Below, one piece after another: positions 3,477 to 28,870 of a DNA stretch of 64,000 bases (position 1 is its first letter; each line of letters opens with the position of its first letter). Source of the stretch: Tubulanus polymorphus (lineage: Eukaryota; Animalia; Nemertea); NCBI RefSeq assembly GCF_964204645.1, contig NC_134028.1, positions 6,634,001 to 6,698,000 of the forward strand. Reading direction: 5' to 3'. Position numbers and translations under genes: made by a program. The notes under the pieces are model-generated. The model saw nothing but the letters and a program-made list of their open reading frames with translations, was not told where the DNA came from and ran no database searches.

Positions 3477-3615
3477 CACCCGATACACATCCCCTTCGTC
3501 GATACTTTATCAAAGAAGGGTAAACCTTCATTTGATAGTCTATCGCCTCGTGTTATAGTATACTATATTATGGTAACCCTTCTTAGATACTCATTGCCAG
3601 AAGGGCGCGCGCGTT
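3477..3615 (+). repeat. left terminal inverted repeat (139 bp)
   Basis: CACCCGATACACATCCCCTTC...GAAGGGCGCGCGCGTT is the reverse complement of 28732-28870. Confidence 0.95.
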
Positions 3616-3825
3616 GGTCGCAAATTTATATTTTGGTACTTAGTTCGGCATGACTGTCGGTTGTTATCGACAGATCCATCTTCTCAAGGACGAAGCCTAT
3701 TTGGGCCATACAAAACTCCTCCGGCTGGCATAACAATCGCGTTTTACAAGGATTTTAGGCCTGAATTCGATCAAGACGACAATCTGCATCCAATCCCCGT
3801 GTACACTGGTAAGTAAGGTGGCCTA

Positions 3826-4775
3826 ATGTCTATTTCATTTTCAATTTCAACCTGACTTGTGACATTTCGTGAGAAGCATACCGGGTGGCCTACTCAGTCA
3901 GTTATGGTGGTACACGTATACCTGTCCTGATAAAAGTCTCACTACGACCGGAAAGCAATGGCAGCTGACCTAAAACATCGTGTTTTAATCAATTTTAAAC
4001 TGCTTTAAAGGACATCCAAAAAGTCTGCATTGAAAGAGGTTCATGAGAGAAAAGAGACTCCATGATTATGATTTAAATATTTATCAATATCTGAATATGT
4101 TTCCATGCCTACCAACTCAACTGAAGTTTGGTGTGTAGGCATGGAAACCTATTGTTAAACTTTCAAATTATGGAGTCAAATTTCTTTATTTAAGCCCGGC
4201 ACACACCTTTGCGATTGATCGTATGATCGCTTCATCGCATGGTTTTATCGCATCATTGTAAAGGTATGCGGTGGCATCCGGAGCCGATTACATCGCAACA
4301 AATCAAACATGTTTCTTATTTTCGTATGCGATTTTTCCGTGAGATAAGAAAGGTCTGCGGGCTACGCTGCCGATGTTCCGGATAAAAATTTTTAGTAACC
4401 AATCAGAATTAAGGATAAAGCAGTCATATGATGTTCAAAATCAGCGGCTCAGTCACGTGATTGAATCCAACTCGAGGCCCTCTTAAAAATAGCAAAGGTA
4501 TGCGGCGATGATACGATTTTCATCGTGTCATCGCTACATCGCATGCGATGATACGATGTCGCGATGATCGCAAAGGTGTGCACCCGGCTTTAGGCGGCCT
4601 AATCCCCTTTCAATGCAGACGTTTTGGATATCTTTTAATACAGTTTCAAATGGATTAAAAAATGATGTTTTAGATCCACTGCCAGTGCTTTCTGGTCTAA
4701 TAAGACCAGGTATGTACTACCAAAAATGAGCGAGCTAGGCCACCTGATGTGCTCTCAAGTCAAGTTGAAATAGAC
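3826..4775. mobile_element. degenerate fold-back (long inverted-arm) non-autonomous element
   Basis: Arms pair, e.g. AAAGGACATCCAAAAAGTCTGCATTGAAAG (~4007) with CTTTCAATGCAGACGTTTTGGATATCTTT (~4607), and GGTGGCCT with AGGCCACC; ends approximate. Confidence 0.6.
4193..4589. mobile_element. PIF/Harbinger-like MITE nested in the fold-back element
   Basis: TIR AGCCCGGCACACACCTTTGCGAT / ATCGCAAAGGTGTGCACCCGGCT, TTA on both sides. Confidence 0.75.
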
Positions 4776-4829
4776 GTAGTAGTTCGGGTTTTCCACGCCT
4801 CATGCTTGACATTATTAGCAGGCCTACTT

Positions 4830-5001
4830 CGGGGATCATTCATTTATTACGTACAGTACGCATAGTATTTGAATTTTTCAACCCCCCTCCCCTCAGTATG
4901 CAAAATCGGCCATTTTTGCATCTACATTAAGCATTACAGTACGCTATTGCACTTATCCCTTCCCCCCTCCTGGCTCTAGCGTGTAATAAATGAATGACCC
5001 C
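4830..5001. mobile_element. short MITE
   Basis: GGGGATCATTCATTTATTAC ... GTAATAAATGAATGACCCC inverted ends. Confidence 0.55.
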
Positions 5002-5442
5002 TGTTAGTGTTAGCTTCACGCCTGTTTCTCTGTTGTATGGAAGCCCTGAGACGACATCTTGGGTTCACGAGTTCCCCAGTTCATAACTTCCCAAGTTAAT
5101 GAGATTTCGAGTTTATTTGGCCATGCACGACATTATGAAATTACGCGACATAAAGATTCGTCTCAGGGCTTCCGTACTATGTTGGGATATCTCGCTTACT
5201 TTTTGGGGAACGTACCTCATTTAGGTCTTAACAGATTCCCAAAAATCGTGGACAACAACCGAAATCCAATATTATTCCAGTTCTGCACCAATTAGATGGA
5301 TTGGCAAAAAGACTCCTTTAGTCCAGTTGAATAGGAGAGAAAATCCTCCATTTTGTGAGATTTCTTGAATTTGAACATTGTCACCATGACTGACGAACAT
5401 ATTTTCCACATAGGGTGAATTTTAATGACTTAAAAATGAAAC

Positions 5443-6717
5443 TTTTTTAGCCCACTTGGGACTTTAGTCCCAGCGGGCTATTGCGTTCACTTTTCGTCCG
5501 TCCATCTGTTCGTCTGTCCGTAGACGGAATCCAGTTATTTTGGGAAGTTTTGAAGACGCTTCAAGGTAATGGCTTGATATTTGGTTTATACATGCATCTA
5601 CCCTAGACACATCTTCAGCCCAAAAACTGGCCCTATCAGAATCAACATGGCCGACTGGCAGCCATTGTTGTTTGCCAAAATCAGCACTTTTTACACATTT
5701 TCGAAGTTTACGAGGGAAATTTTGAAGACGATATGATCAATTACCTTGATCTTTCGAATATATTTGAATCTACCAAGGGCCCATCAGCATAAGAAAAATT
5801 GGGTCCATCTGACTCAAGATGGCCGTCCTATGACCTTTTTAGTGCCCAAAAATGTCAATTTTGGCCAGAATTCTAGGTCCTGTAGCTTCCTACTGGTTTG
5901 CCATTTCTCATTGCAATTTGTGATGGGTATTCTTTGTAAAGGGATGTTTTATACCCGAGATAGGTATTTTTGATCCGCCAATTATGACGCAATTGGCAGC
6001 CATCTTGGTGTCATTAGTACTCATTCGTAGGTGGGAAAAAGTTTTGTTCGACATTATATTGGTACCTAAGCATATTTTGTTACAACAATGAATTAGAAAG
6101 TTTTAGAGTATAATGTGTTCTATGATTGGGGTGAGTTTCAAGTTCATTGTTTTTTGTATATGGCCACCAGGGGGCGTTGAATAATACAATATCTTAGTAT
6201 TTCTATATTATATTTGTACCAATACATATTTTGTTACCGCAATCAATTGCAAAGTTGTAGCTCATGACATCATCTATGATTGTGGTGAGTTTTAAGGAAA
6301 TTAGTAATTCTACATAGTCACCAGGGGGCGTTGAATAGTAGAATAACCTGGTATTTCCTTATTATATTGGTACCTAGGCATATTTTGTTACCATGATCAA
6401 TTGCGAAGTTGTAGTTCATGACATGTTCTATGAATATGGTGAGTTACAAGGTTATTGGGTTTTGAATATGGTCACCAGGGGGCGTTGAATAGTAGATTAA
6501 CTTAGTATTTCCATATTAAATTAGTAACGTGGCATTTTTTGTTATCACAATCAATTACAAAATCGTAGCTGCTGACATGTTTTATGATTGTATTGGGTTT
6601 CAAGGTCATTGGTTTTTGTATATGGTCACCAGAGGGCGTTGAATATTGAAATTGTTAGATTGTTGAGCATTTGAAACCACTTCCCAAGTGGGCATGGTGT
6701 CCCTGGACCCCTAGTTT
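5443..6717 (+). mobile_element. Helentron-associated non-autonomous element (HINE/DINE-1-like) with 154-bp internal tandem repeats
   Basis: T-run + subterminal IR GCCCACTTGGG with nearby hairpin, CCGT/CTGT microsatellite, four 154-bp units (CACCAGGGGGCGTTGAATA at 6165, 6319, 6473, 6627), 3' CCCAAGTGGGC + hairpin + CTAGTTT. Confidence 0.75.
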
Positions 6718-7326: not shown

Positions 7327-10300
7327 TTATTCTTTCAATTCAATTGGTTGATGTTTTTCTACAATACTTTGTATCTTTTTATCATACGAGATCACCATAT
7401 CCATAACGGATGTCAGGTTTTCAATCGGCTCCCATGTGTTGTGTTTTGAAGAGAAGTCCAACCACTTAATTTTGTAATATTGTTGACCTCCTTTCGATTG
7501 ATGACCAACAATTTTTTCCACCAAGAATATGTCTGGAATTAAAGATTGATATCAAATATACTACCACAGGCTACATATTACAATTGAAATTTTGCGCTTT
7601 AAGATGCTGTTTCTGCATAAATACATACCATCATTTGGTTTCTTTCTGGATTTATTTGCTAAAATGAAAAAAAACTCAATCATTTTTTTTTTAAACGAAA
7701 CTACAGTGAACACCTCCCTTAGTGAACTCCTCTATTTAGTGAACGCCTCCCTTAGAGAACACTTTTACCCGGGAACCAAATTTTCCCTACTCATTTTCAA
7801 TTAAACAGAACCACCATTTAGTGAACTTTACCAAATGAGTATTTATAGTGAACAGTGGTCCCATCCCAAAATAACCTTGTCCTCACTAGCGTGTTGTACC
7901 CAGGTTTCAACGTACCTGGGTTCAATGAAAACCCGCGTTCACGGTGAGTAGCGTCTACACTTAACACAATTTCGGTAGTAAGAAACAACATCTTTAGTGC
8001 AAGTTCAAGGTCAATTGTGGCGCCTGAACTCTGCATTGAACGCGGGTTCACTGTCTAGACTAGCAAAAAATGCAGAGTTTTACGTGACAGGGGGTTTCAA
8101 TGTGGAGTGTTCTTCTTCAAGAAGGGTTTCTAAAACCTGGGTTTTGCGGAAAAATATGTGCTACCTCCAATTAGTGAACACCTCTCTATAGTGAACAATT
8201 TCTTAGGAAGCGAAGTGTTCACTAGAGAGGTTATGCTGTATTCGATTGGTATTAACTGAATTGAAGGCTGCATACCTGATTTCTCCTTTTTCTTTGTGAC
8301 AACTTCGGTTTTTCTTTTTGTCATAGGTTCTGTTGAAAAAAAGAAAGGATAATTCAGCCTAGCTATTCAATAATATCTCATTTTATTTATTTTCTAAATA
8401 TAAAGAACAATACGTACCTCTGATGATCTCTGCACTATCTGAATCTACAATGAGAAACAAGATAATTTACCCCAATATTACCATAGCTTGTAAGTTTATA
8501 AGACAAAAAGACTTAGTTGTACCTTCAGTGGCTTCTGGAAACAGAAGTTCTTCAGTTGGTGACGCTGCTTCTCCGTGGCTCATAGTATCAACTAATAAGA
8601 AATAATTCTAATATTATCCATCAGTTTCATTTCCATTTCATTTCCATTAAAACATATCAATTGATTTTGAAATAACAGACCAATGCATTACTTGGAAAAA
8701 AGCATATTGTATTTGTGATATAAGGAAAAAAGAATTGATACCATGTTTCTTATTTCTGAGCTTAAAAATTGACGCAGGTGGCCATGTATCTACTCTGTAT
8801 ATTTACTTTTTTTGAAACCATTAACAAGCTAACAATAACAGACCTGGCAGTTACAGAAATAAACTGATTAGAAAATTTATTGCCGAGGACAAACAAGGTA
8901 TCAATTTTTTACCTTATAAAACACAATAATGCTGATCTGGCTGCTTTGAAATATTTCTTTAAACGTGCATACCCTACCATTATTTATTTTCCTTTTCTTG
9001 ATGCCAGTTTTGATTACTGAAAGAGAACAATTTTTTAATTGATTTTGTGCAATTATACTTCATCAAAGACTGCATAGCTTAGTGTTAAAAACGTACCTGA
9101 TTTCCCTGTTTTCTTTGTGAGGACTTCGGCTTTTCTTTTTGCCATATTAGGTTCTGTTGAAAAAAAGAAAGAATAATTCAGCCTAGCGATACAACAATAT
9201 CTTTTTTGCTTAAACGTAAGAAAAACATAAGAATACGTACCTCTGATGATCTCTGTAGCATCTGAATCTACAATGAGAAACAAGATAATTTACCCCAATA
9301 TTACCATAGCTTGTAAGTTTATAAGACAAAAAGACTTAGTTGTACCTTCAGTGGCTTCTGGAAACTGAAGTTCTTCAGTTGGTGACGCTGCTTCTTCGTG
9401 GCTCATAGTATCAACTAATAAGAAATAATTCTAATGTTATCCTTCCATATTCCATTAAGACATATACCAGTACCAGTACATTGTATTTCAATACATTAAG
9501 CCCACACAAAGAAATACCCTAGTTCTTCAAGGTCAAATGCCACCCGCATCATAAAAAAAGTAAAAATCGAAATTAATTAAATTAAAATCGAAAATTCAAA
9601 TGCGCTAACCCGCATTGGCAAACCATCAATCTGAATCGTCTTTTTTTATTATAAAAATTAAATCCTGCTCGCCCGCACCGCTGTATTTGTTATTTACTTA
9701 CTTCCCGCATCTCTTATATAAGTCTCTGGTTTCGAGCTTTTTATTTCAACTCTTTTTCAAAGGAGCTATGAAAATATAATTTGCTCACCAGCGTCACTTT
9801 CCAGAAAAAACCTGAGAAACTACGGTATTTCTTTGTGTGGCCTAATAATGACATTCAATATATCAACATCAAGATAAATGTTGATATATTATGTAATAGT
9901 GTGTCTAACTTAGTGTGTTAAATATCTATTACCGGTAAGTTGAAACAGTGTACCTTCGAAGTATATTTTATCTTCCTTTTTCAAAAGTGCTTTCAGCGAG
10001 TTTTTTGCATAAGATGATGGTCTTTTCAAAATTATTCCAGTTGGCAAATTAAATGCCCTGACTTGACCAGCATCAACCGCTTTGTAGCTGCATCTCGTCC
10101 CGGAGATACCCTTTATTGCTGAAGCTATATAATGGCGCATATGAAATGATTACGATTGTCAAATGCTGAATTTTTCGACTATTTGAATGTATAATCAAAT
10201 CAAGTAGCTAAAATATATGCTTACTGTATTTACGATTGAACATATCTGTGACTTTCGATCGCAGTACGTTGACATCTTCTAATTGATTGTCATCATCTGA

Positions 10301-11516
10301 ATGTAGCAACAAACGTATAGAAACTGAGACTGCCTGAATTATCTTAGTTAATGATAGTGAAAGTGTGTATGTTTGAATTATCTTTACCTGGCTGATAAAG
10401 TGACTTCAGACTTTGCTGAACCTCTCTCTGTTTTTCAAACCACTTTGTTGGAATTGGTGATCCACATATAAACATTCTATTCCCATCCTTAGTAATAGCA
10501 ATAGCCACAACATCCAACTTTTCTGTTGTCGAAGTAAATTTATTTACCTGAAGTATAATTATGTTATTTAGATGACTGCAAATAACATAAACGTTAATGG
10601 TTAAATGAAACGGCCTACCTTTTTTTCTAGTTCATGCACCAGAAATTCAATGTTATTTTCTTTATTTTCTGGGCCGATAGGCTGGCTGTGGCTTGCAGCC
10701 CTCTGTGCGTATGAAGCCATTGCTTCCTCTGTTTGGTCATTCCAATTTCCCTGGCCTAAAATGATATACAAATTACACACACCTCACTTTAAACAGGCTC
10801 AGCAACTACATAGAGGTTGACTAAAATCAACATGTATCTAGCTTACATTTTCCTTTTTTTTTATCAGAGAGATAAACATCGTACGGTCTGCATGATCGAA
10901 TGCGCTGCTTCTTACTCAGATTTTCATAGTTGTAAATCCCAGCTTTCTTTCGACATTGTACCTTGTGGTTCTCTATCCATTTCTTAAACAGAATAAACTA
11001 AAACTTTTAAAATACAGTTTATCAATTTATTATTTTAGTAAAAGTGCTTCATCACAAAGTCTGGAGAAAACACCGTAGGCCCTAGATCATAAGAAAAAGT
11101 TATATAGGCCTACCTTAACTGATTTCTCTGGCATGCCTGTAGCAACACTGGCTTCTCGAACCATTCCTTTGGTAAATTCATTTCCACAATGAGTCATCCC
11201 TTTCTCATAATAGGACACCAAAGTAGACTGTCTGAATTCAAATTGAAACTAAAGCAGTTAACGACTGTTAAATGTAAGTAGCTTAAAAGATCTTTCATAG
11301 TCAAACTCGCCAAAGTTCATCAGAGAGGTTGTCATAAGTTATCTCTGATCTTGGAACGACATTAGGCTAAGTCAACAACGTAATGATAGTGCATGTATCA
11401 GTTAATTATAAGAACTAGGTCTGAATGGTTTGATAGTAGAGACCTGCCCAAGTGCATGCTTACCTTTCCTTGGTGTTTAATAATGGCCCATGGGTATTTT
11501 CAAATTCTTTGTCCAT
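7327..11516 (-). CDS. transposon cargo protein: HDX-like homeodomain + degenerate HMG box + GTF2I-like repeat + acidic/basic linker + C-terminal chromodomain (~461 aa, ~15 exons)
   Basis: In-phase GT-AG exons 11516-11464, 11231-11114, 10982-10847, 10755-10619, 10547-10388, 10296-10225, 10124-9954, 9414-9346, 9267-9241, 9153-9097, 8591-8523, 8444-8418, 8329-8276, 7658-7629, 7532-7327. Motifs: RQSTLVSYYEKGMTHCG...ATGMPEKSVKKWIENHK; RPYDVYLSD...WNDQTEEAMASYAQRA; LRSKVTDMFNRKY...NLPTGIILKRPSSYAKNSLKALLKKEDKIYF; FLVEKIVGH...YKIKWLDFSSKHNTWEPIENL. Linker exon set is least certain. Confidence 0.8.
7704..8238. mobile_element. Tc1/mariner-pogo-like MITE in an intron of the cargo gene
   Basis: TA|CAGTGAACACCTC...TAGTGAAC and GTTCACTAGAGAGGTTATGCTG|TA; repeated TTAGTGAAC subterminal motifs. 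Confidence 0.7.
8276..9445. repeat. tandem duplication of a ~340-bp three-exon block (8276-8620 and 9097-9445)
   Basis: Near-identical exons and introns (DTMSHxEAASPTEELxFPEATE / DSDxxEIIR / EPxxxKRKxEV). Confidence 0.9.
9500..9842. mobile_element. PIF/Harbinger-like MITE
   Basis: TAA|GCCCACACAAAGAAATACC ... GGTATTTCTTTGTGTGGCC|TAA. Confidence 0.7.
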
Positions 11517-13057: not shown

Positions 13058-14751
13058 TCAAAACAAATGAGAAGAATAGCGACAAGTACGTGTCCAAATA
13101 TGTGCTTTCTTCTCCTCGTGGAATATGCGAGTAAATTTCATAGGACACTCACATAGATAACAATTATGATTGCTGCCAACCCAACGGTATATCCAGATAT
13201 CATGGTTCGGACAATGGCAATTTGTGGTGGTACTCGAACTACCTAATTTTTTGTCAATACTTTTTTTAACCGCTTCGTTATAGGCACATATCGTATCTAG
13301 TTTATGCATTTGTCGAGCATGCTGAAGGAGATCTTTAAATTTTTCACCATACTTTTTGCAGTAAGGCAAAATACATCGATCAGCAATAACAACTTTTTCA
13401 GAAGTGTGACGCTTTTTATGGTCAGTCAGGTTGCCTCTAGACATAAATCTTAATCCACAAATATTGCAAGCATATTGTCCTTTTGGCACATGTCTTTTAA
13501 CATGAACGTTCAAATTGCTCTTATCGGTAAAGCTTTTACCGCATATCTCGCATGAAAATTTCAGTTCTTTGCAATGTATTCTTGAATGACGATTAAAATT
13601 TGATTTATTGCCAAAAATTCTGCCGCACACCGAACATTCATATCCACTGTCTACTTTTTTACATAATACTGTAGCTGTATCGGGCGCAATAACTGATGAC
13701 GAGTCCTGGTTCTTTTCGCTAACGTCACTTTTTAGAACGGAAACAACACGACGTCTATTACTTTTACGCCTGGACAAAGTTGTCGTAACATCAACACGTT
13801 TTACAGATACATTTTCTTCGATGTCCTGTTGCTGCTTGAGCTTTTTTAATTGGTCGACATGAATATTCCACTGTTCTTCGAAACTAATCGAATCATACTT
13901 CCATGCGAGGAAATGAAGTCCAATATTTAGGGAGGGCTTAAGTCCAATTGCTTTTTTTTCCATAAACAATGGTATAATCGATTTTGCATGTTCTTTAACT
14001 TCCTCCATTGGCCATGGCCCAATTGGCAATGCTCCACCATACTTTAACCGCAGAGCTTCCACGCGTCTAATCGTATCAATTTCGCCAATAATTGGGCAGG
14101 AGGGAAGAAATTCTTGAAATTCATGAGTATAAAAGCTGAAAAGAAAGATATTCAATTAGAAGATAGTTTAGTACAGGTAAGATAAGAATTTTGGTTGATA
14201 AGAGGATTTATTGTCCATACTTACAAATAACCATAGCCATTTCCGTGTATTTCAACGACCAGGTCCCCACTTCCATAGGGGCATGTTGGTGGAATATCAT
14301 GTAGTCCACAGATCTGTTTTTGGGCCTGTGTATTTTCCGCTACATTTATCACACCCATACATCTGGGAGGAAACTTACGAACATACGCAAATCCCACTCG
14401 TATTCTCTCTGACTCTGTGCGAAGTAAATAAAGAGGTTTCTTACTTATCATTGACATCAGATCAGCTAATACCAAGTCCTACAGCTATGCCTTGACAGTA
14501 TATAAATTTAATCAATTACGGTATGTACCTTTTACAGCAGCTCCAGTAAGCTTGTTGGCCGGGTACTGGTTGTTGAGTCGGAGCCCATCTGTTTCAACGG
14601 GCGTACCGAGGATCGGGGTTTCACTGCCGACTTTCTTCTGCCGGCCTTGTTCTTTGTCACTATCGTCTTCGACTTCATCACTTACATCGAATGGTTCTAT
14701 TCCACTAATATCGCTACTTGCATCCAGATCCACGCCTAGACATTCAGCCAT
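13058..14751 (-). CDS. transposon cargo C2H2 zinc-finger protein (~515 aa, 3 exons)
   Basis: Exons ~14751-14536 (donor uncertain), 14478-14225, 14135-13058; the exon 2/3 junction is in phase (GY-F-FYTHE). Three tandem C2H2 fingers (YECSVCGR...HSRIH; FSCEICGK...HVKRH; YACNICGL...HKKRH), an atypical fourth finger and a Cys/His-rich tail; AATAAA on the minus strand near 12620. Confidence 0.8.
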
Positions 14752-15032: not shown

Positions 15033-17850
15033 GGTCGTTCTTATTTGAACGACGATATCAGAAACGCGCAACTGCTAATATATAACCATATTCGCAATTC
15101 ACCAGAAACATACTGAGACAAGAACGACCAAGCAGGCAGAAAACATTAAACAATCATCAATATCCACATTTTTCGACTATATTTAGCGTGAAATAGAAGT
15201 TTCGATCAATTTCTCATTGTTGGTCGTTCTTGTTTGAACGACGATATCAGAAACGCGCAACTGCTAATATATAACCATATTCGCAATTCACCAGAAACAT
15301 ACTGAGACAAGAACGACCAAGCAGGCAGAAAACATTAAACAATCATCAATATCCACATTTTTCGACTATATTTAGCGTGAAATAGAAGTTTCGATCAATT
15401 TCTCATTGTTGGTCGTTCTTGTTTGAACGACGATATCAGAAACGCGCAACTGCTAATATATAACCACATTCGCAATTCACCAGAAACATACTGAGACAAG
15501 AACGACCAAGCAGGCAGAAAACATTAAACAATCATCAATATCCACATTTTTCGACTATATTTAGCGTGAAATAGAAGTTTCGATCAATTTCTCATTGTTG
15601 GTCGTTCTTGTTTGAACGACGATATCAGAAACGCGCAACTGCTAATATATAACCACATTCGCAATTCACCAGAAACATACTGAGACAAGAACGACCAAGC
15701 AGGCAGAAAACATTAAACAATCATCAATATCCACATTTTTCGACTATATTTAGCGTGAAATAGAAGTTTCGATCAATTACTCATTGTTGGTCGTTCTTGT
15801 TTGAACGACGATATCAGAAACGCGCAACTGCTAATATATAACCATATTCGCAATTCACCAGAAACATACTGAGACAAGAACGACCAAGCAGGCAGAAAAC
15901 ATTAAACAATCATCAATATCCACATTTTTCGACTATATTTAGCGTGAAATAGAAGTTTCGATCAATTTCTCATTGTTGGTCGTTCTTGTTTGAACGACGA
16001 TATCAGAAACGCGCAACTGCTAATATATAACCACATTCGCAATTCACCAGAAACATACTGAGACAAGAACGACCAAGCAGGCAGAAAACATTAAACAATC
16101 ATCAATATCCACATTTTTCGACTATATTTAGCGTGAAATAGAAGTTTCGATCAATTTCTCATTGTTGGTCGTTCTTGTTTGAACGACGATATCAGAAACG
16201 CGCAACTGCTAATATATAACCACATTCGCAATTCACCAGAAACATACTGAGACAAGAACGACCAAGCAGGCAGAAAACATTAAACAATCATCAATATCCA
16301 CATTTTTCGACTATATTTAGCGTGAAATAGAAGTTTCGATCAATTACTCATTGTTGGTCGTTCTTGTTTGAACGACGATATCAGAAACGCGCAACTGCTA
16401 ATATATAACCATATTCGCAATTCACCAGAAACATACTGAGACAAGAACGACCAAGCAGGCAGAAAACATTAAACAATCATCAATATCCACATTTTTCGAC
16501 TATATTTAGCGTGAAATAGAAGTTTCGATCAATTTCTCATTGTTGGTCGTTCTTGTTTGAACGACGATATCAGAAACGCGCAACTGCTAATATATAACCA
16601 CATTCGCAATTCACCAGAAACATACTGAGACAAGAACGACCAAGCAGGCAGAAAACATTAAACAATCATCAATATCCACATTTTTCGACTATATTTAGCG
16701 TGAAATAGAAGTTTCGATCAATTTCTCATTGTTGGTCGTTCTTGTTTGAACGACGATATCAGAAACGCGCAACTGCTAATATATAACCATATTCGCAATT
16801 CACCAGAAACATACTGAGACAAGAACGACCAAGCAGGCAGAAAACATTAAACAATCATCAATATCCACATTTTTCGACTATATTTAGCGTGAAATAGAAG
16901 TTTCGATCAATTTCTCATTGTTGGTCGTTCTTGTTTGAACGACGATATCAGAAACGCGCAACTGCTAATATATAACCATATTCGCAATTCACCAGAAACA
17001 TACTGAGACAAGAACGACCAAGCAGGCAGAAAACATTAAACAATCATCAATATCCACATTTTTCGACTATATTTAGCGTGAAATAGAAGTTTCGATCAAT
17101 TTCTCATTGTTGGTCGTTCTTGTTTGAACGACGATATCAGAAACGCGCAACTGCTAATATATAACCATATTCGCAATTCACCAGAAACATACTGAGACAA
17201 GAACGACCAAGCAGGCAGAAAACATTAAACAATCATCAATATCCACATTTTTCGACTATATTTAGCGTGAAATAGAAGTTTCGATCAATTTCTCATTGTT
17301 GGTCGTTCTTGTTTGAACGACGATATCAGAAACGCGCAACTGCTAATATATAACCATATTCGCAATTCACCAGAAACATACTGAGACAAGAACGACCAAG
17401 CAGGCAGAAAACATTAAACAATCATCAATATCCACATTTTTCGACTATATTTAGCGTGAAATAGAAGTTTCGATCAATTTCTCATTGTTGGTCGTTCTTG
17501 TTTGAACGACGATATCAGAAACGCGCAACTGCTAATATATAACCATATTCGCAATTCACCAGAAACATACTGAGACAAGAACGACCAAGCAGGCAGAAAA
17601 CATTAAACAATCATCAATATCCACATTTTTCGACTATATTTAGCGTGAAATAGAAGTTTCGATCAATTTCTCATTGCTGGTCGTTCTTGTTTGAACGACG
17701 ATATCAGAAACGCGCAACTGCTAATATATAACCATATTCGCAATTCACCAGAAACATACTGAGACAAGAACGACCAAGCAGGCAGAAAACATTAAACAAT
17801 CATCAATATCCACATTTTTCGACTATTTTAAGCGTGAAATAGAAGTTTCG
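15033..17850. repeat. satellite array, 189-bp unit x ~14.9 copies, nearly homogeneous
   Basis: Unit starts GGTCGTTCTT at 15033, 15222, 15411 ... 17679; only a few variant sites. Confidence 0.98.
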
Positions 17851-18393: not shown

Positions 18394-19562
18394 AAAACTA
18401 GGGGTCCAGGGACACCATGCCCACTTGGGAAGTGGTTCCAAATGCTCAACAATCTAACAATTTCAATATTCAACGCCCCCTGGTGACCATATACAAAAAC
18501 CAATGACCTTGAAACTCATCACAATCATAGAACATGTCAGCAGCTACAATTTTGTAATTGATTGTGATAACTAAATATGCCTTGTTACCAATCTAATATG
18601 GAAATACTAAGTTATTCTACTATTCAACGCCCCCTGGTGACCATATACAAAAACCAATGACCTTGAAACTCATCACAATCATAGAACATGTCAGCAGCTA
18701 CAATTTTGTAATTGATTGTGATAACTAAATATGCCTTGTTACCAATCTAATATGGAAATACTAAGTTATTCTACTATTCAACGCCCCCTGGTGACTATAT
18801 TCAAAACCCAATGACCTCGAAACTCACCACAATCATAGAACATGTCATGAACTACAACTTTGCAAGTGATCATGATAACAAAATACGCCTAAGTACCAAT
18901 ATAATAAGGAAATACTAAGTTATTCTACTATTCAACGCCCCCTGGTGACCATATAGAATAACTAATGTCCTTAAAACTCTCAACAATAATAGATGATGTC
19001 ATGAGCTATAACTTTCCAATTGATTGTGGTTACAAAATATGCATAGGTACGAATATAATAAAGAAATGCTAAGATATTGTATTATTCAACGCCCCCTGGT
19101 GGTCATTGACAAAATCCAATGACCTTGAAACTCACCACAATCATAGAACACGTTATGAGCCACAACTTTCTAATTGATTGTGGTATCAAAATACGCTTAG
19201 GTATCAATATAATGTGGAAAAACTTTTTCCCACTTACAAATGAGTACTGGCGACACCAAGATGGCTGCCAATTGCGTCATAATTGGCTGATGAAAAATAA
19301 CTGTCTCAGGTTTTAAAACATCCCTTTCCAAAGAATACCCATCACAAATTGCAAATTGAGAAATGGCAAACCAGTAGGAAGCTACAGGGCTCAGAATTTG
19401 GGCCAAAATTTACATTTTTGGGCACTAAAAAGGTCATAGGACGGCCATCTTGAGTCCGATCGACCCAATTTTTGTTATGCTGATGGGCCCTGGGAAGATA
19501 CACATACATCCGAAAGATCAAGGTAATTGATCAAAGCGTCTCAAAAATTTCCCTCAAAAAGT
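18394..19562 (-). mobile_element. second, inverted, 5'-truncated copy of the HINE-like element (five 154-bp units)
   Basis: Reverse complement of ~5700-6717 (AAACTAGGGGTCCAGGGACACCATGCCCACTTGGGAAGTGG...). Confidence 0.8.
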
Positions 19563-20042
19563 TCAAATTTTTAGTCAGGAAATATGATCAACAGCTAGTA
19601 GACCACAATAATAAAAGGAAATTGAGGTGTTTGTACAATTACCTATAAAAAATTATATTTTGAACATATTTCACGGAATTCCGGGAATTTTAATTTTACA
19701 ATCCAAGGTCGCCATCAATGTCCGATTAGCAAAGTTGTCTGAGCATGGCTGCACCATTTCCATGGCTGCACCATTTCCAATCAAATTTGTAACATCCGAT
19801 GTAATAAAATATTTTTTGATAATGATCTGTGCCGATATAATGATTTGATTTAAAAAAAAAAAAAATTACGAGAAAGGAGTTTGGTAGTCGGTCGGCCATA
19901 TATATTTTTGAAAAAAGTTATTTCACCCAAAATTTTGAAAAAGGGTCGATAGGCAATTATATCTTATTCTGAAAATGATTATTTTTACAGAGTTTTCTTT
20001 TCTGTGGCCTAAATTCCAAATTTGTGTGGCCTAAATTCAAAA

Positions 20043-23000
20043 TTAAACAACTACTTCTGTGTCAGACTCTTGATCATCAGAATCAAAAGTATACAGTGCG
20101 GAATTGGAATCTTCTGGTTCAGCAGTTTGTTTTTCCACTAAATTTGAGTATATTTCTTGACACGAGGAAATGCGTTTATGAAGGAACTTCAGTTTTTCAT
20201 ATATCAAACTCTTAAGTCCCTGATCTACATCGTCATCTTCCCTGGCAGCAAGAAGATCAGCTCGTTGAATCTCTAAATTCTGTATCACATGAGAAAGTTC
20301 AACCTGAACCATTTGCTTTTCTTCTATCGACCTTTTCAGAGTAAACCAACTGCCTAAGGCTTTACGTTGCATTGTAGTTAAAGCTGACATCTAAAGGAAG
20401 AACAAGACAGGAAATCAAATACGAGAAAAATTTTGTAGCAAGCTCCACCGAGAAGAATAAAGACCAACCTCGTTAGACAATGGCTGGTAAATTGTGCTTT
20501 CGAGATTCAGAGCATCTTTAGAACTAATTCTGTTGATATCCGCAGTCAGACAATTGTACAAGTTAATGGCCTTTTTTATACTTTTCACAACCCGCTTCCG
20601 CTGCTTGATCAGACGACTTGCAATTTTCTGGCCACCTAAAATTTAGTGGGGTATATACATGAGTTATGTCTGTTCTGAAGGGATTTACAAGGGAGGAATG
20701 ACAATGTAGCAATTATGTCACATGGGATGGCAGTTTCACCTGCATGTTTTTTTGAAGCTTTATCAAGAACCTTCATCTCACATGCTAAGGTTCGCATTTG
20801 TCGAAGATATGCACAACGTTTCCTGTCATTCATTGCTTCCATTAGATTGATGTATTCGTATTGAGAACTGGACCATCGAGTGAGATTCCGAATATTTTCA
20901 ATTGATTGAAGTCTTGCATCCAGTCTAAACGAGACAACAGTATCAGTATCATCACAATGCCACCATAATGAAAACTGACAGAAAACAAGCTGAAAACTAA
21001 TACCAATGTACGTAGTTACTCCAACTTACTCATCTCTCTCTTTAACAAGGGTCATACATGTGGTACCATCATTAGAGCTCTTTATCATTGTACTGAGAAA
21101 AAAAAATATATATTTACATTCATATTTCATTTAAGTACTTAATAAGTGCACCTCTGATGATTTATCTCATAATTACTATAACTTACCAGACAGTGTAGTA
21201 TGTAGACAAGAGCTTGACGTATTTTTCTTGCCATGAGGATGGGTTTCCTTAATATTGAAAAAGAAAAATAATCAATACAACAGGCCTTAAAACTCTTTCC
21301 ACACCGTGGGTTAAATATTTCGCCTCATGAGATGACTATAGCTGATGTCGAGGGCAAACTCATTTGCCAGGGATATATCTAAAATAATTTCATTGAAAAA
21401 AAGTTTATAGGGCAATTTTTATTGGTTTGTCAAGTGGATGAGATCTCAGTCATGTATCTGGTATACTATAGTATAGAACTATTAGATGGCGAAGCTGTGC
21501 CCACAGTAACTTATGGCAGGTGACCTCCATTTTTTCCCAGATTTCTAATTCAAAGGTCAATAAGTCAGCGTGACCCTCAATGGACCCAAACCCTAGAGTG
21601 TATCATATAACCATTCATGAGCTTTCAGAAAATTATTGGTTTTGGGGTGTTGACTTAGTTCAATGCCACGTGTTCACAACCCCGAAAAGGTCCAGCACAG
21701 CTGAGTGGAATTTCATTAATGATGATCAACATGGAAAGAGTTAAACTTGTTAACACCATGCCATAACTTTTACCTTTATCTCTTTTATGAGTCACTGATA
21801 CCTTTTCCTGGAAATTCCACTGTTCAAAGATATCATCTCTCCCAGTAGCTATTTCTAAAAATAATGAAAAGATACATGTAAATTCAGCTTTATTCCTCTA
21901 GCAAATAAGATACATGGTGACAAATCGAGACCTGGAATTATCAATGATATATCGGCAAGTTCCTTTTCTGCTTGTTCTATAGCTACATCTGCTCTCTTAA
22001 ACCGCTCAAACAATGCGAATTCTAAAACCACAAACAAAAATGATGTCAAAATTATCAATATGTGATAACCATACCATCCTGGATTTACTTACCAATTTTA
22101 TTCATTTTCTTCCATGTATAATGCTGGGCTGCTAATGTAAGTAACTCTAACCTACGATTTGGAGTCTGTTCCTTTGTAATTTGAGCAAATCGTCGGATAT
22201 AAGACCAAAATCGTTCCATAGTTTCTCCATCCGTCAAACCAAAATTTTCCAAGCGACGTGGACTTAAGTTTGTCTGAGCGATAATAAAAGATAAAAAAAC
22301 ATTTTTTTTTTCAAATAAATATAATGATCCAGTCAGAAGAAAACTTAAACCTAGGTTAGATCCATACTTGACAATTGGCTTGATGACCATAGCAGTGAAA
22401 TAATGGAATGGCAAATTGGAGATTACCCGGCAACATTCTTGAAATATCTGGTTTCTGAAAAAATATCAAATGCACGTGGTAGTTAGAATGGGTTCAGGGA
22501 AACCATTCTCATTTGGGAACTAGGGATATTGTTTCAATAACATGGTCTATGGGCAATAACTAAGAAATGGCATCTACCTTTAGATATTTTTGCAATACAC
22601 AAGCTATGTCATACATAACTACCAATTCTAATTGATTATGCTCAACTTGCAGCTCTGCAACCATATGATTCAACAGCGAAACAACGTAACTGAGCCTGGA
22701 ATATGAATCAAACACATTCTCACACATCAAAACTAGGGATCCAAGGACTCCATGAAATCATTGACTATTTCAATATTCAATGGCCTCTAATGAACATACA
22801 CAGAAACCAATGATCTTGGCACTCATCAGAGAAGATTTCATGAGCTACATATTTGCAATTGATTGTGGTTCCAAAATATGCACATGTAAGATACAGAACT
22901 AGATTACCTTTCACCGTGCCTTAGATTTAGCATCGCTAGTGGAATCTCATGTCGTGAACATGCCAAACCCATCACACCAGTATAATCCAAATTGACAGCT

Positions 23001-26000
23001 TTGTTTTTGGCACGGATGTCTGTTCCTGCCTGGAAATTATTACATTCCTGGAAAAATTAATCAAATGGCAATTTCAATTAAATATATTAATATATATTGT
23101 ATACAATCAAAACCATTTTTTTCAAAACCAAAATATTTACACCATCATCAAGTTTGGATGTATCACAACATCTCAAAACATACGAATCTACATTGCCTTG
23201 GTCTAAAAATATTGGTCTTAAGATTTGTGGGGTAGAGTAACTCCTTCCTGCATTCTTTTTCCGAACCAATCCAAAATTAGCATCAGCTGACACAAAAAGT
23301 TTACCATTATCCTAGGAAGATGAAAATTGATTTTCAAAAAATATTTCAGAATACAGAAGACTCTGCCTGTCCGGTAATCCATTCAATCTAAATGAAGGTC
23401 CAAATGGTACCGGTTAAGGCGGGGTCTATTTTATATGGCAAACCAGTGTCAGAAATGCAGCCAGAAGCCATACCTCAGGACAAGCCAAGCACCGCTTATA
23501 AGTGTAAGATTTCGACAACAGATATTCCTCACAAGTTATCAATCTAAATCTACTCAGACTCTCACTTGTCAGCAGTCTATACAACTGTGAGACCTACGTA
23601 ACATCAAAGCACATCAAATTTTAGTTAACAATGAAATATAGACAGGAGATGTGCACTTGGGGTGTATTACTTTACCTGGTCAAGCGAATAAGCGTTCATC
23701 ACAGCATACGTGTCTGCAAATGCTCTTGCTGACAGCTGACCTTCTATTTGGAGAGTCGTAAAAAGTTTGAGAAAATCAAATGATGCAGCGTATGTTGGCT
23801 GGGAAGGAGATGCAGGCCACAAACGATGATTGGTTAAAGCAATAGGTAGACTTTGACATTCGCAGTGCTGAACTTTTTTCGCATCACATCGACCTATTAA
23901 TCAATATCAAACATAGCAGTGAATAAATCTGAAGTAAATTATGGTTGATTTTGATTTTAACCGTCCTGGTGAATTCTTGCTGTTTGGTTAAAGAAATTTA
24001 CTTTTTTGGATCTAAATCCAGATACTGGCATGCATTTTAACCTACTGACAGATAATGTCATTTATAAAACAAGAGTTAAATCTTGAGCAAATTATACATA
24101 CCATAAGAATCGAAGACTGTAATAATTTTTTCTTCAATCAAGGTACAATTGCATGGTAATCTGCTGAGGAGGGGTGGCTCCCTAGGACACACATGGTTAA
24201 AAAAACCATCCATCTGTGCAAAATAAAAACATCATAAAATACAATGTACGTAGAGTTTTTACCATTCATTCACGTTTCCACTGGTAAGGCCAGGACAAAA
24301 AGAAGTACTAAGGACTTTTTCAGCAATTTTAGACCCAAATGGAAGGACTTCTTGACTGAAAAAGAATACTTTCCAGCAAAATTAGGACCCAAGCAGGGCC
24401 CACAATAGGCGATTTTTATCACTGAATCCAGGCATCCTCACTTGCCAGGGCTTGATTACCGCCCGCTAAAGCTCCCGTCAACACAAACCCTGGCCGTATA
24501 CCCTTCATTGGTCTATTACATCGCCCAAAATTTCGTGGGCCGAGAGGTTAACACTGAATGCCCACCAGTCTATATATCTAGCCAAAGAGATGCATGATTT
24601 GTCCTACAGCATTACCACGCATATGATTGACTGGAGTGAAATATAGACTGGCGGACACTGTCTGGCCAAGAAATGGACAATGTAATAGACCATATGAAGG
24701 GTTTGTGGCCAGGGTTTGTATTGGCGTGAGCTTATTATTCAAAAACATTTGCAATGTGTACCAATGTCAAATTTTGTGCAATATTTCCAAGCAAAGAAGC
24801 GATAGAGACATGAGATTTCAAATAAAAAACAACCTTTTTAGACGCAAAAAAAGACCTTGAGTGAACAAATTTTGACCAAATATACCAATTGACCATGAAG
24901 TGTATTAGAAATTTCCCTTGAAAACTTCAAAAGAGCTGATTTTAGCAAGCCAAATATATGGACAGACAATTGAATTAAGTGTCTTCAAAAGTTCGCCTTG
25001 ACAGAATAATGGACATATGACAGTTGAATAGTGAAAGCTAGGCCCCTGGGACTTGAGTCCCACATGGGCTATAAATACTTACAGCTTGCCACTGCTTCAA
25101 TCGATGGAAAGGCAAATATGTATGTAAGTTTATGCTGCATTCCAAACAGTATGTAGCAAATGGATGACAATCATCACATCGAAAAGGCTCTTGTTCGATT
25201 TTTTCGCAGATAAAACATTCAAACGACATCGGTTTGTACTGCTTCAGAGCAGATTCAGTGAGCTTGTCCGATAACTCATCCCACGCATGGACTTCAGACA
25301 CTCGTCTCTTTCCATAATCACCATAACTGCCTTTCGTTGCACTTTCAGAATGACCTTTTGAGTTAAAAGAATATTCATTTGGATCAATCATTTTAAAACA
25401 AGATGTAGTTATAGTAGTACAATGCCATCACCAATGCCTAATGGGACATCCGGCAAATTAACTAGGGGGCACCATGCCTACTGGCTGGTTGAAAGGCTCC
25501 ACAATCTGGCGATCTATAAAATACAGATATCAATGACCTTTTGCAACTACAATTTTGCTTTTGATCGTGGTAACAAAACATGCAATATGGAAATATCATA
25601 CGTTATTCCACTATTCAATGCCCCCTGGTGAACATTACAAAACAGAGAGTCATGACCTTGAAACTGACCACAATCATGGAACATCTCATGAGCTACAGCT
25701 ACGCAAAAAAATTGCTGCTACAAAATGTCCCCCCCCCCCTGTTTTATGATGAGATTTTACAAGGACCACCTTCACAGCACTCAAGAGTTCAAAGAGATCG
25801 GCTCTATAACGGAAAACGGCTCTATAACTTTTTAGTGCTTGGCCCGTAGTATCTACATTCCCAGTTTCGTCAAGATGAGATTATAATTGTTGGACAAGAA
25901 GCGATTTAAAGATTTTACAAGCGCCACCCATACAGCGCCCTCTAGAGATCAAATTCGGAAAAACGGCTCCATAACTTTTTAGCCCTTGGCCCATTTTCAC

Positions 26001-26476
26001 TTCATACCAAGTTTGGTCAAGATTAAAAAAGAACTGTAGCACTAGTAGCAAATTGAAGCAAAAGCTGATGGAGGAATGGACGGACGACGACAGATAATCA
26101 CTCTAACCCATCAGCTCCTCTGACCTTCGGTCACAGCCGAGCTAAAAATTACATGTACCATACAAATGGATTTCTCTCAACGAATTCATTTGATTGAATA
26201 AGAGTGTATTAGTATTGACTTACTATCAGTTGGATCAAGTGATTCATAGTCCGAAGATTCAGGCTCAGTTAAATTAGATGAGCCAGAATCAGGAACATTT
26301 CCTTTTATTTCCGACTGCCCACTGACGCTATGAAAAACACCATCTTTGACCAGGTATAACATCGGTTCTTTTTGTTTCTCTCTTACAACTTTAATAGGCT
26401 TCATTTTTCCAGATTTTACGATGGTTACCTCAGGATAATCTGTATGCAATTCTTTAATAGTTCTTTTGCGAGGCAT
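20043..26476 (-). CDS. KDZ (Kyakuja-Dileera-Zisupton) DDE transposase with N-terminal CxC (CxC2-like) cysteine domain, ~888 aa, 17 coding exons
   Basis: In-phase GT-AG exons 26476-26224, 25354-25083, 24213-24102, 23893-23676, 23593-23474, 23311-23141, 23047-22908, 22695-22578, 22454-22368, 22273-22093, 22021-21932, 21854-21774, 21247-21187, 21092-21030, 20924-20740, 20635-20469, 20390-20043 (2667 nt, no internal stop found). Motifs FRCDDC...CLEC...LPFHRLKQW; HCEC...LWPASP; CLACP; SADANFGL; TGVMGLACSRHE...HGER; MYDIAC; IPLFHCYGHQANCQ; GLTDGETMERFWS; GQKIASRL. Confidence 0.93.
25420..26148 (-). mobile_element. HINE-like element in intron 1 of the transposase
   Basis: Minus-strand 5' end TTTTAGCTCGGCTGTGACCGAAGGTCAGAGGAGCT + CGTCCGTCC microsatellite; internal similarity to the 154-bp unit family. 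Confidence 0.55.
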
Positions 26477-27323
26477 AATGGATAGACTGAAAAATAAGTG
26501 CTGGTAAAGGTTAGAAGTAATCAGATTGCATGTAGCCTTTCTGGTCTTTCGTTATATTAGTACACTAATAGGAAAGCACCAGTTCAAGAACTCAACGGGG
26601 GCCAGGATTAGTGCCTATTTTCCTCCCCTATTATAAGATGCGGTCCACCAGCTGAACCAGAGGCTCAGGAAACATGACCACTTGTCACAAAATTCAATGC
26701 CCCCTGTTGACCATATATAGAAACAAATGAGCTTGAAACTCACCACAGATAACTGGATTCCAGTGGTGCCCGAGGTGGAATGGTGTATTACATTGACTAG
26801 GCACCTGGTTTAGTGTGGCAGGGGTGCGCGCTGTGGCTGTGTAGCAATGCCAAAAGGTTTAACTCCCTGCCGAGGGAGGATGATTTTTATTTACGATTTG
26901 ATAGAACTGATTTAAGTGTAGGGTGCAGGGGCGGATCTAGGGGGGTCAATAGGGTGGCTAGGCACCCCCTCAAACGCCTTCAAAAAATTTTTTCGTGTAA
27001 ATAGCCTATCTCTAAGAAAATAAGAATGTTAGCTGCCTCAGAATCAGAACTAACAGTAGCGTTGCGACATTATTGGATGTCACCGTATGCTACGAGCATT
27101 CATCGAGATGATCGCTCGTAGATACAAGTAATGACTGACAAAGGTGGCTATTTGAGGATATTCAAGCGGGAAGTGATCAAATCGAAGTGCTGACAGTGTA
27201 CCCTGCTTAGCAGGAGAGAATTAACAAATCTCATTATATAAAAAATGCATCATAGGCCCATGGCTATTTGGTTGATAAACGTCAATCACCGGCTCAATAC
27301 GTCCAGTGCGGGTGTAAAAATAA

Positions 27324-27748
27324 GGGTGTGGTTATTCAGCTGGATCCGGTCACCGACTTCTGAACAATATTTTGCCGGATATTTCTCCGCGCATATGCGC
27401 AGAGAGGTGCGCGACTTGAAGGAAGTATGGAGAAAAGAGTTTGAGAAAGCAGAGCGCATAGAGCGAGACTCGAATCCGGGTCAGTAAATTCACCTAGCGC
27501 AGCGTCTTCCCACTAGACCACCGAGCTCGCTGAAAACCACCCGAATGTTTTAACTAGATATATAGCCCCACCTAACCCTATCCCTAGTTGTGAAACAAAA
27601 CCCTGGACCCTCTTCTCACCCTCTTGACATTAACCCTATCAAAACCCTAACCCTAAACCCAATATAATGATTTTACTAATACATGATATATGGATCCGGC
27701 AAAATATCTTTTAAGTCGGTAACCAGATCTGGCTAAATAACCACTTCC
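27324..27748. mobile_element. Mutator-like MITE with 9-bp TSD, containing a tRNA-like segment
   Basis: ~55-bp imperfect TIRs (GGGTGTGGTTATTCAGC... / ...GCTAAATAACCACTTCC), TAAAAATAA on both sides. Confidence 0.75.
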
Positions 27749-28046
27749 TAAAAATAATCGGCCGAAAATTTTAAGTTTGATTCAGGTGATTCACTAGGCG
27801 TTTGTCGTCACCGACTGAATATTTCGGGCGATTAATGCAGTAGCCATTTTCGTACTAGGCCTAAAGCGGTGATTCACTGGCAGCACTTTGAGTATACGGC
27901 CATGGTGGCGCACTGCCTATTTGATTTAATAAAATAATGAAAAGGTCGGCAAAATACTGAATAGGCCGAGGCTAAGTTGGAATTTATACTAGGCCCGGAA
28001 ATCTAAGGCATTATGCATTACCCATTTTCGATTTCCATTATAAAAG

Positions 28047-28481
28047 GGTCCTCCTTATTACCGAGATGACGTAATTTACCGAGATGACAATGACGTGAAA
28101 TATAGTATATTTAACTATTCCTTATCAATTTTAACACTTGAAATAATGTTGCATCAGTAATAAATACCTTCTAGAGTCATATTTTACATATTTTTCCGGA
28201 TATTTTGTAAAAAAAATTTGACTTAATCGTAATCTTGGTTAGCAATAAAATTTCATTAGATTTGATTGATCGACGATCTCATCTCAGTAAAGATATTTTT
28301 CTACAAAAATATCCGATAAAATATGTAAAATATGACTCCAGCAGGCATTTATTACTGATATAATATGATTTCAAGTGTTAAAATCGATAGGGAATAAATA
28401 AATATGTTATATTTCTTTATGTCATCTCGGTAAATACGTCATCTGATCTCGCCCTCTCAGTCTCGGGTAATAAGGAGGACC
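28047..28481. mobile_element. fold-back MITE
   Basis: GGTCCTCCTTATTACC...GGTAATAAGGAGGACC with ~160-bp pairing arms. Confidence 0.75.
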
Positions 28482-28731
28482 GTTATTAAATGCATTTGGA
28501 TTAACGGTAAGGCTTTCTTCTTCGACGACGTGCAAATGACTTACTTGATCAATCTACTTAGAGATAATAATAGACTTTAATTCACGTTTATCGACGACGA
28601 TGTATCGTAAGATCCAGTGGGTTTTAAGTAAAAAAAGTAACGCGCGCCACGTTCACTAAAAATGCAGAATGTCGACCGATTTACGGCCAATACTGTTGAT
28701 GTTCGAATCCCAGAATAAACGACCGAGTGTT

Positions 28732-28870
28732 AACGCGCTCGCCCTTCTGGCGATGAGTATCTAAGAAGGGTTACCATAATATAGTATACTATAACACGGG
28801 GCGATAGACTATCGAATGAAGGTTTACCCTTCTTTAATAAAGTATCGGAGAAGAGGATGTGTATCGGGTG
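28732..28870 (-). repeat. right terminal inverted repeat (139 bp)
   Basis: Reverse complement of 3477-3615. Confidence 0.95.

Follow-up and report, generated by a model that had tools for sequence, protein, structure and literature searches.

What kind of element lies at positions 3477-28870 of the Tubulanus polymorphus window (the whole 64,000-nucleotide stretch of DNA analysed), and what do the genes beside its transposase do? The interval is a giant, ~25-kb KDZ element with three minus-strand genes, A, B and C, between terminal inverted repeats (TIRs). The left TIR (3477-3615, plus strand) begins with CA and contains palindromic words, and the right TIR (28732-28870, minus strand) ends with TG, giving the element 5'-CA..TG-3' termini; each is 139 bp long, and the two are complementary at 131 bases. 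An exact 7-bp direct repeat, ACGTTGC, lies at the TIR edges on both sides (3470-3476 and 28871-28877); two random 7-mers from the window would match by chance with p of about 1.3e-4. TIRs and a flanking direct repeat had been claimed in a preliminary description, and both were borne out. So was the claim of three co-oriented spliced genes, as all three have open frames without internal stops and every internal splice site is GT-AG. An element with full ends and three open genes is present in the window, which supports the proposal of a complete multi-gene animal KDZ element. It has the defined ends, the target site duplication (TSD) and the dispersed copies of a KDZ transposon, the ends being taken from the window copy alone. 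The preliminary description had missed the Kyakuja-like character of the TSD and ends, and the homology of gene C to the TFII-I N-terminus. Rfam gave no matches in the 64-kb window, and none of the five pattern matches among viral contigs was related to the element.

Gene A (20043-26476, minus strand; 17 exons, 888 aa) was recognized as a KDZ transposase from Pfam matches on its exons and from RefSeq relatives, and its exon model follows two exons implied by the RefSeq models. The protein consists of a Cys/His-rich N-terminal region, a CxC cluster (196-275), the KDZ domain (329-548) and a helical C-terminus. Pfam matched the KDZ domain PF18758 on the transposase copy P0001 (E 7e-42), and four gene A exons of the window matched it singly. 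The CxC cluster of P0001 matched CxC2 (E 7e-9), CxC1 (E 9e-7) and CxC3 (E 0.05); no SWIM, SAP or CxC4-6 match was found in gene A at Pfam E values up to 1. Acidic residues D335, D458 and E514/E517, located in the window protein itself rather than by alignment to a reference KDZ, are present and are what we take to be the putative catalytic triad. TET/JBP domains had no Pfam match in the 23 exon/ORF pieces scanned, which were longer exons and modelled ORFs, or in full-length copies. The earlier suggestion that the accessory genes encode DNA- or chromatin-binding proteins, in place of TET/JBP, is supported by the Pfam content of genes B and C.

RefSeq contains five T. polymorphus transposase copies, 0-7 residues from the window protein, on five contigs (23.0, 27.4, 11.5, 16.7 and 31.9 Mb). 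Aligned with the window transposase, P0002 (834 residues) and P0003 (490 residues) show no difference, and P0001, P0004 and P0005 differ from it by 5-7 residues. All five contigs also carry an annotated gene C (the fifth assigned from consecutive accessions); gene B is annotated on two only. The transposase, B and C are consecutive at one locus (LOC141909802/803/804), and B and C are adjacent at another (LOC141907197/198); on three of the five contigs, linkage of transposase and gene C means co-occurrence on a chromosome-size contig only. Two situations had been put forward earlier as ways to overturn the transposon interpretation, TIR-like sequences that are independent dispersed repeats without TSDs and cargo that consists of single-copy host genes syntenic in species without the transposase; as far as the available data reach, neither was encountered: neither B nor C is single-copy, and C and the transposase are multi-copy on the same contigs.

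Read depth inside the element relative to the right flank was about 5.7 in X1 contigs and about 2.1 in X5 raw reads from another study, ratios to be read with the provisos that Logan contig depth is not copy number, that X2 gave a lower ratio than X1, and that reads were placed at 88% likeness. X6 offered almost nothing in this region. At five listed sites not one X5 read agrees with the window (20115, 18/18 differing; 20227, 22/22; 22178, 16/16; 22182, 15/15; 26330, 27/27), so the X5 animal apparently lacks the window's subfamily while retaining the flank. We infer an insertion polymorphism between individuals. The element is apparently young and multi-copy. Because the TIRs and TSD occur together with copies 0-7 residues apart, we infer cut-and-paste mobility by the encoded transposase.

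Gene B (13058-14751, minus strand; three exons, 513 aa) encodes an N-terminal domain, three C2H2 fingers, which Pfam matched, and a Cys/His-rich tail. No relatives were found outside T. polymorphus (one match among 163 candidates), and the N-terminus gave no usable Atlas match and no PDB match. P0014, a candidate member of the gene B cluster, gave no window match above 70% and is not counted here. We consider it more likely that gene B joined the element later, as an addition specific to this lineage, and it may regulate the element through an upstream array. That array, correctly placed between the genes by the preliminary description, occupies 15032-17850, lies 280 bp upstream of the gene B start codon and comprises 14.9 units of 189 bp with 99% matches. 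Each unit carries one 14-bp word in both orientations, giving about 30 word copies, and the array is CpG-rich (CpG o/e 1.66). The element also harbors two nested copies, absent from the first list of features, of a high-copy host repeat whose core consists of 154-bp tandem units: one at about 5700-6717 (minus strand; its left edge may reach about 5460) and one at 18395-19567 (plus strand), inverted relative to the first and 86-89% alike. X5 read depth at the latter was about 8,400, against about 10 in the flank. The inverted pair brackets gene B, gene C and the array.

Gene C (7327-11516, minus strand; 16 exons, 481 aa) was annotated from Pfam, a structure model and a family alignment, and its domains are numbered here by the residues of P0009. 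From the N-terminus these are a homeodomain (about 15-70), HMG-like helices (about 85-125), a middle domain (about 128-200) and a GTF2I repeat (213-283), followed by an acidic/basic linker, within which an exon is duplicated (8273-8622 / 9094-9445), and an HP1-type chromodomain in the last exon (7532-7327). Pfam matched the chromo and GTF2I-like domains on gene C directly. The HMG-like call derives from Pfam matches in 4 of 15 family members, none of them gene C itself, and HMG did not appear in the structure-match lists for gene C. A fold computed from 15 sequences (pLDDT 69.5, pTM 0.28) is usable domain by domain only, and the single-sequence fold was poor (pLDDT 39). The modelled middle domain resembled MADS/SRF (Z 7.7, rmsd 4.7, 85 aligned residues) and NRF1 (Z 7.2, rmsd 13.9), both below our bar of Z 8, and we treat a MADS/NRF1-like fold as a lead. 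The chromodomain is nearest to those of CBX5/HP1, Rhino and MPP8; CBX2 and LHP1, which read K27, score well too. In the alignment with CBX5, three aromatic positions presumably form the methyl-lysine cage, and there gene C has F/W/F where CBX5 has Y/W/F. On sequence grounds the chromodomain is predicted to bind methylated H3K9. The chromo shadow domain of HP1 proteins had no Pfam match in gene C.

The gene C family is patchily distributed across animals. A profile of the middle domain was matched by 21 of the 150 listed representatives, and named members come from amphioxus, carp, Cottoperca, sea cucumber, starfish, crinoid, limpet and cephalopods; the cephalopod proteins are long, conserved across Octopus species and Sepia, and host-gene-like. 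Also in the family is an Atlas cluster dominated by Cnidaria (166 members, score 0.95). A Basidiomycota cluster scored 0.80 and is a lead only. One predicted gene model from another organism, P0064, contains a KDZ fragment (35% identical to P0001 over 112 aa, E 5e-15), then a GTF2I repeat, then a chromodomain, and it is the only pairing of family C with KDZ outside T. polymorphus among the 176 proteins compared. Because P0064 pairs KDZ and C in the same order elsewhere, gene C is probably an old accessory gene of the element lineage and not a recent passenger.

The middle domain and I-repeat of gene C align with the N-terminus and first repeat of vertebrate TFII-I/GTF2IRD1 (HHalign 99.0%, E 4.4e-18, 157 columns). 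Gene C thus has the N-terminal domain and I-repeat of that family, with one repeat only in place of five to six, and by sequence we classify it as a homologue of the TFII-I family, not a member. In a tree of 21 rows, from which 15 near-duplicates or isoforms were left out together with P0064, P0047 and P0017 (in which the full segment is absent), TFII-I-type proteins formed one group (100/98); the base has long branches and gives no direction for the TFII-I link. A metagenome scan with family C gave one match of 170, L001, a multi-repeat GTF2IRD1-like fragment without a KDZ match. We offer only tentatively, as a scenario that may well not hold, that gene C is a standing accessory of an animal-wide Kyakuja-like lineage from which vertebrate GTF2I, GTF2IRD1 and GTF2IRD2 were domesticated, keeping the MADS-like domain and I-repeat, multiplying the repeat and losing the homeodomain, HMG and chromodomain, while cephalopods separately domesticated the whole gene.

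Our preferred reading, to which we assign a probability of roughly 70%, is of a KDZ transposon, young and multi-copy, whose ends are Kyakuja-like and whose cargo is B and C, gene C likely being the element's own helper. In the predicted protein the homeodomain, HMG-like and GTF2I-repeat modules would contact DNA and the chromodomain would read methylated H3K9, so that the transposase or new insertions would be directed to silent chromatin. A possible but somewhat doubtful alternative is that the target of gene C, together with B, is the element itself: it would bind motifs in the element's array or TIRs, read H3K9me and keep the element transcribed in a VANC/Vandal-like manner. The homogenized, CpG-rich array with its many word copies close upstream of gene B is consistent with this, as is the transcription-factor nature of the TFII-I relatives of gene C; transposon-borne anti-silencing genes are described in the introduction of PMC12730594. 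However, what the array word shares with the TIRs or with other parts of the element does not exceed chance (longest common words, 12-13 bases), and no catalytic eraser domain is among the Pfam matches. CpG depletion of the gene A and C bodies (o/e 0.55 and 0.63, against 1.06-1.14 in the flanks) is expected after germline methylation, but also fits ordinary gene-body methylation.

We consider it unlikely that B and C are captured, Pack-type host passengers without a role in transposition, with family C an old host transcription-factor family. The conserved, host-like cephalopod members, TFII-I in vertebrates and the restriction of gene B to T. polymorphus would agree with capture, of which the inverted host repeats around B, C and the array could be a scar. 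Yet every T. polymorphus gene C record lies on a transposase-bearing contig with no diverged host paralogue among them, KDZ and C are paired in another organism as well (P0064), none of the three frames is interrupted, and A and C have the same low CpG signature. It is very improbable that the copies arose from a domesticated locus by segmental or assembly duplication and that the TIRs and TSD are relics: the TIRs do mismatch at 8/139 positions, but the 7-bp duplication at their edges is exact, the copies occupy five contigs with subfamily differences, and in two studies depth rises within the element but not in the flank.

With its full ends, this intact and apparently young Kyakuja-like element from an animal provides a testable substrate in a superfamily whose chemistry and helpers have barely been studied. 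Here a DNA transposon carries, as a separate gene, a predicted DNA binder of four modules joined to an HP1-type reader, with which chromatin-guided targeting or self-regulation could be tested directly. The I-repeat and the TFII-I N-terminal domain are tied to a transposon-borne invertebrate family, and we did not find their origin discussed in the literature searched. If the link runs from transposon to host, a transposon origin would follow for three human transcription factors of the Williams-Beuren region.

The same search, with Repbase, Dfam and subscription journals beyond its reach, found neither a KDZ origin of I-repeats nor the window's cargo architecture on a KDZ element. The preliminary view that the architecture is undescribed agrees with this search for the cargo combination, but is overstated for giant KDZ elements with accessory genes, which are already published. 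A third, HMG-domain gene reportedly lies beside fungal Kyakuja; our literature search gave no match for it. We know of no separate reader gene in Zisupton. The vertebrate proteins GTF2I, GTF2IRD1 and GTF2IRD2 have no homeodomain, HMG or chromodomain match and differ from gene C in repeat number; in the sources available in part, the sole link in print between TFII-I and a transposon is the Charlie8 hAT fusion of GTF2IRD2, which is unrelated (PMC10641963). Partial texts also report enrichment of the KDZ domain in oyster (PMC10546077) and CxC2 preceding an intact KDZ in Pleurotus (PMC7641404); KDZ goes unmentioned in the passages of PMC6431247.

Giant KDZ elements reach 30.3 kb in Ectocarpus and 31.7 kb in Chlamydomonas, and share size, nested repeat insertions and additional genes with ours; they are algal, their accessory genes are mostly without assigned function, and none in the accessible part of the report has the window's architecture (PMC12477816). 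Cryptococcus KDZ1-3 (Dileera) and KDZx1 (Zisupton) likewise combine TIRs, a TSD, a KDZ/CxC transposase and extra ORFs, and their movement has been observed; as far as the available text goes, they are 6-11 kb long, with 8-bp TSDs, extra ORFs without recognised domains, and CxC1 or CxC4+SWIM (PMC11343200). Fish Zisupton, as summarized in the accessible parts of PMC12730594 and PMC12477816, are animal KDZ elements with TIRs, like ours, but have an 8-bp TSD and SWIM/CxC4, where ours has 7 bp and matches neither domain; the Dileera TSD is also 8 bp. Mushroom Kyakuja, in the sections available of Kojima 2025 (PMC12730594), agree with the window element in KDZ transposase, 7-bp TSD, CA..TG termini, extra gene(s) and large size, one consensus in Table S1 measuring 16.5 kb; the two Laccaria families described there carry TET/JBP and lack TIRs, whereas ours has 139-bp TIRs and C2H2 and reader genes. 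By its ends and TSD the element fits a Kyakuja-like assignment, not Zisupton or Dileera, and because of its TIRs, which the two Laccaria families lack, we file it as Kyakuja-like and not as a Kyakuja member.

The feature at 3477..28870 of the window is a genuine animal KDZ element of Kyakuja-like type; it holds three genes and appears to be young. Its location in the preliminary description was borne out by comparison of the window with itself. The TIRs (3477-3615 and 28732-28870) pair with each other at 131 of their 139 positions, with the likeness ending abruptly beyond, and the element termini are CA..TG. Immediately outside each arm lies ACGTTGC (3470-3476 and 28871-28877), a direct repeat of 7 bp that fails to extend to 8 bases; two random 7-mers from the window would match by chance with p of about 1.3e-4. 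Further inverted-repeat structures lie near the ends, at 3870-4757 and 28097-28415, the latter probably a nested MITE because its bin has a read depth of about 480. Between the ends are the three co-oriented spliced genes originally reported, all on the minus strand, with GT-AG introns and without internal stops.

Gene A (26476-20043, minus strand, 17 exons) encodes 888 aa. P0001, a T. polymorphus record near-identical to its product, matched the KDZ domain PF18758 (E 7e-42; the window exons were scanned too) and the Pfam cysteine clusters CxC2 (E 7e-9) and CxC1 (E 9e-7); the Pfam domain scan gave no match to SWIM, SAP or CxC4-6 in this protein. Judged by its domains, gene A is a KDZ transposase. 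One extra base at 25445, in transposase intron 1, is present in sequencing runs X1, X2 and X5 (26/29 reads in X5); this difference reflects either a private deletion or misassembly.

The genes had been taken for parts of one mobile unit, and the transposase and gene C indeed proved multi-copy, together on five contigs. The transposase cluster has five RefSeq members of T. polymorphus, one on each contig, that differ from the window protein by 0, 0, 5, 6 and 7 residues; as two differ by none, the window copy is probably one of two loci with an identical transposase. Gene C is annotated at five loci, on these same contigs (27.4, 23.0, 11.5 and 31.9 Mb as tabulated, and 16.7 Mb as inferred from consecutive accessions), and gene B at two. 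Transposase, B and C stand in a row once, at the consecutive LOC141909802, 803 and 804; elsewhere the transposase number is non-adjacent, so that linkage of A and C is deduced from the common contig only. The ratio of element to right-flank depth was about 5.7 in X1 contigs, where contig depth does not equal true copy number, and about 2.1 in the X5 raw reads (from a different study), with X2 lower; raised depth inside the element agrees with the annotated multiple copies. At five sites (20115, 20227, 22178, 22182 and 26330) no X5 read agrees with the window, and the X5 animal therefore probably lacks the window's insertion. Three of these differences match H49Q, Q528L and V828A of the other transposase subfamily.

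The proposed cargo of a zinc-finger gene and a chromatin-reader gene was recovered as C2H2 fingers in gene B and a chromodomain plus GTF2I repeat in gene C. Gene C (11516-7327, minus strand, 16 exons, 481 aa) matched the Pfam GTF2I-like repeat (E 6e-10) and chromodomain (E 7e-14). A structure model built from 15 sequences adds an N-terminal homeodomain (best Z 8.4 against a threshold of 8; rmsd 2.4 over 59 aligned residues), which many further homeodomains also matched, and HMG-like helices. The middle domain, ahead of the GTF2I repeat, folds as helix-strand-strand-helix and resembles SRF and NRF1 at scores below the threshold, and residues 287-406 (pLDDT below 50) make up an extended flexible linker. 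CBX5/HP1, Rhino and MPP8 are the closest matches of the chromodomain, which retains aromatic residues at the three aromatic positions of the CBX5 alignment. Among 15 aligned members of the gene C family (family C), Pfam finds a chromodomain in 11, a homeodomain in five and HMG in four, gene C itself not being one of these four. Gene B (14751-13058, minus strand, 3 exons, 513 aa) carries three C2H2 fingers (Pfam) C-terminal to a domain that received no assignment from Pfam, Atlas or structure searches. Its neutral CpG o/e (0.97), together with the lack of any relative outside T. polymorphus in the protein search, makes gene B more likely a later addition to the element.

Searching the gene C protein P0006 against 1.84 billion representatives gave 1,450 matches, mostly via the chromodomain; the middle-domain profile matched 21 of the best 150. 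Family C members include amphioxus, carp (zgc:113176), Cottoperca, sea cucumber, starfish, crinoid, limpet, cuttlefish and octopus. Atlas holds a mostly cnidarian family C cluster of 166 members (score 0.95) and a mollusc cluster of 58 (0.83). Also similar to the N-terminal half of gene C is a Basidiomycota cluster of 193 members (score 0.80), a lead that could correspond to the HMG-type gene adjoining fungal Kyakuja. P0064 starts like the window's transposase and includes a KDZ fragment with 35% identity to P0001 across 112 residues (E 5e-15); after this it has a GTF2I repeat and a chromodomain nearest the starfish-like P0068. It is best read, from its domain order, as a gene model spanning a neighbouring transposase and C-type gene arranged as in the window, the sole such pairing among 176 proteins compared. 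Cephalopod family C genes are long and conserved (P0121, P0126, P0170-P0175) and misnamed kinase-like or myb-like in databases; they look like fixed host genes, and are candidates for a domesticated chromatin reader.

Six multi-I-repeat proteins among the matches listed have N-termini matching the middle-domain profile (E 2e-13 to 7e-6; best E 0.12 in 1,200 shuffles), and two of these compare with solved structures as GTF2I-like (P0071) and GTF2IRD1-like (P0022). Profile-profile alignment joined family C to the multi-repeat proteins over 157 continuous columns, covering the middle domain and first repeat, at 99.0% probability. Together, these E-values and this alignment make homology between the family C middle domain plus I-repeat and the TFII-I-type N-terminus well supported. 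The multi-repeat proteins form one group in the tree; since its position is unsettled and cephalopod members look like host genes, we assign the link no direction. Our literature search found no paper that traces I-repeats to KDZ cargo. The sole connection to a transposon that it found for TFII-I proteins is the hAT fusion in GTF2IRD2 (PMC10641963). In P0017 (993 aa), a homeodomain-like N-terminus shares one chain with four GTF2I repeats and with ten C2H2 fingers, which brings C-like and B-like modules together in a single protein.

Five pieces of a 154-bp-core repeat lie inside the element, and none turned up in the remaining 38 kb of the window. Two large, mutually inverted copies (5700-6717 and 18395-19567) bracket genes B and C and the array; fragments lie at 22764-22891, 25543-25726 and 26681-26747. 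Its read depth of about 8,400, versus about 10 in the flank, indicates a high-copy host repeat, whose layout we take to resemble HINE/Helentron-type elements. The right flank has high-copy short repeats and a 350-bp CT microsatellite (32190-32253, 31004-31507 and 39006-39352).

Judging from the ends and from what is known of the family, the encoded transposase would recognise the TIRs, cut out the 25-kb unit and reinsert it with a stagger of 7 bases. Gene C appears to encode a helper separate from the transposase, much as the Myb/SANT protein serves Harbinger/Nuwa. It would join multiple modules for DNA binding, a domain that probably dimerises, a flexible linker and a terminal predicted H3K9me-type reader, and we favour a model in which tethering to silent chromatin serves targeting. 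An ORF scan of the window flanks found no long ORF other than low-complexity frames, which is compatible with such targeting. The main rival is that the element regulates itself via the 189-bp array (15032-17850), which was confirmed among the genes with 14.9 units and 99% matches. A 14-bp word occurs twice in every unit, in opposite orientations and about 99 bp apart, a pattern reminiscent of a paired binding site or of a small MITE with a spacer. CpG is also enriched in the array (o/e 1.66), whereas it is depleted in the bodies of genes A and C (0.55 and 0.63; flanks 1.06-1.14); both features favour self-regulation. Variants at unit positions 58 and 181 recur every three units in part of the array.

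The preliminary description of a giant multi-gene KDZ element holds for its presence in an animal, but large size and extra genes were already known for KDZ elements: PMC12477816 describes elements of 30.3 kb from Ectocarpus and of 31.7 kb from Chlamydomonas, and PMC11343200 describes Cryptococcus elements of 6-11 kb with unassigned extra ORFs. The significance of the element rests mainly on its accessory gene family and the TFII-I homology, and less on size. According to Kojima 2025 (PMC12730594), Zisupton and Dileera have 8-bp TSDs, in contrast to 7 bp here, and Laccaria Kyakuja has 7-bp TSDs, CA..TG ends and no TIRs. The window element shares the TSD length and ends of Kyakuja but differs in its 139-bp TIRs, and is accordingly filed by TSD and ends as Kyakuja-like.
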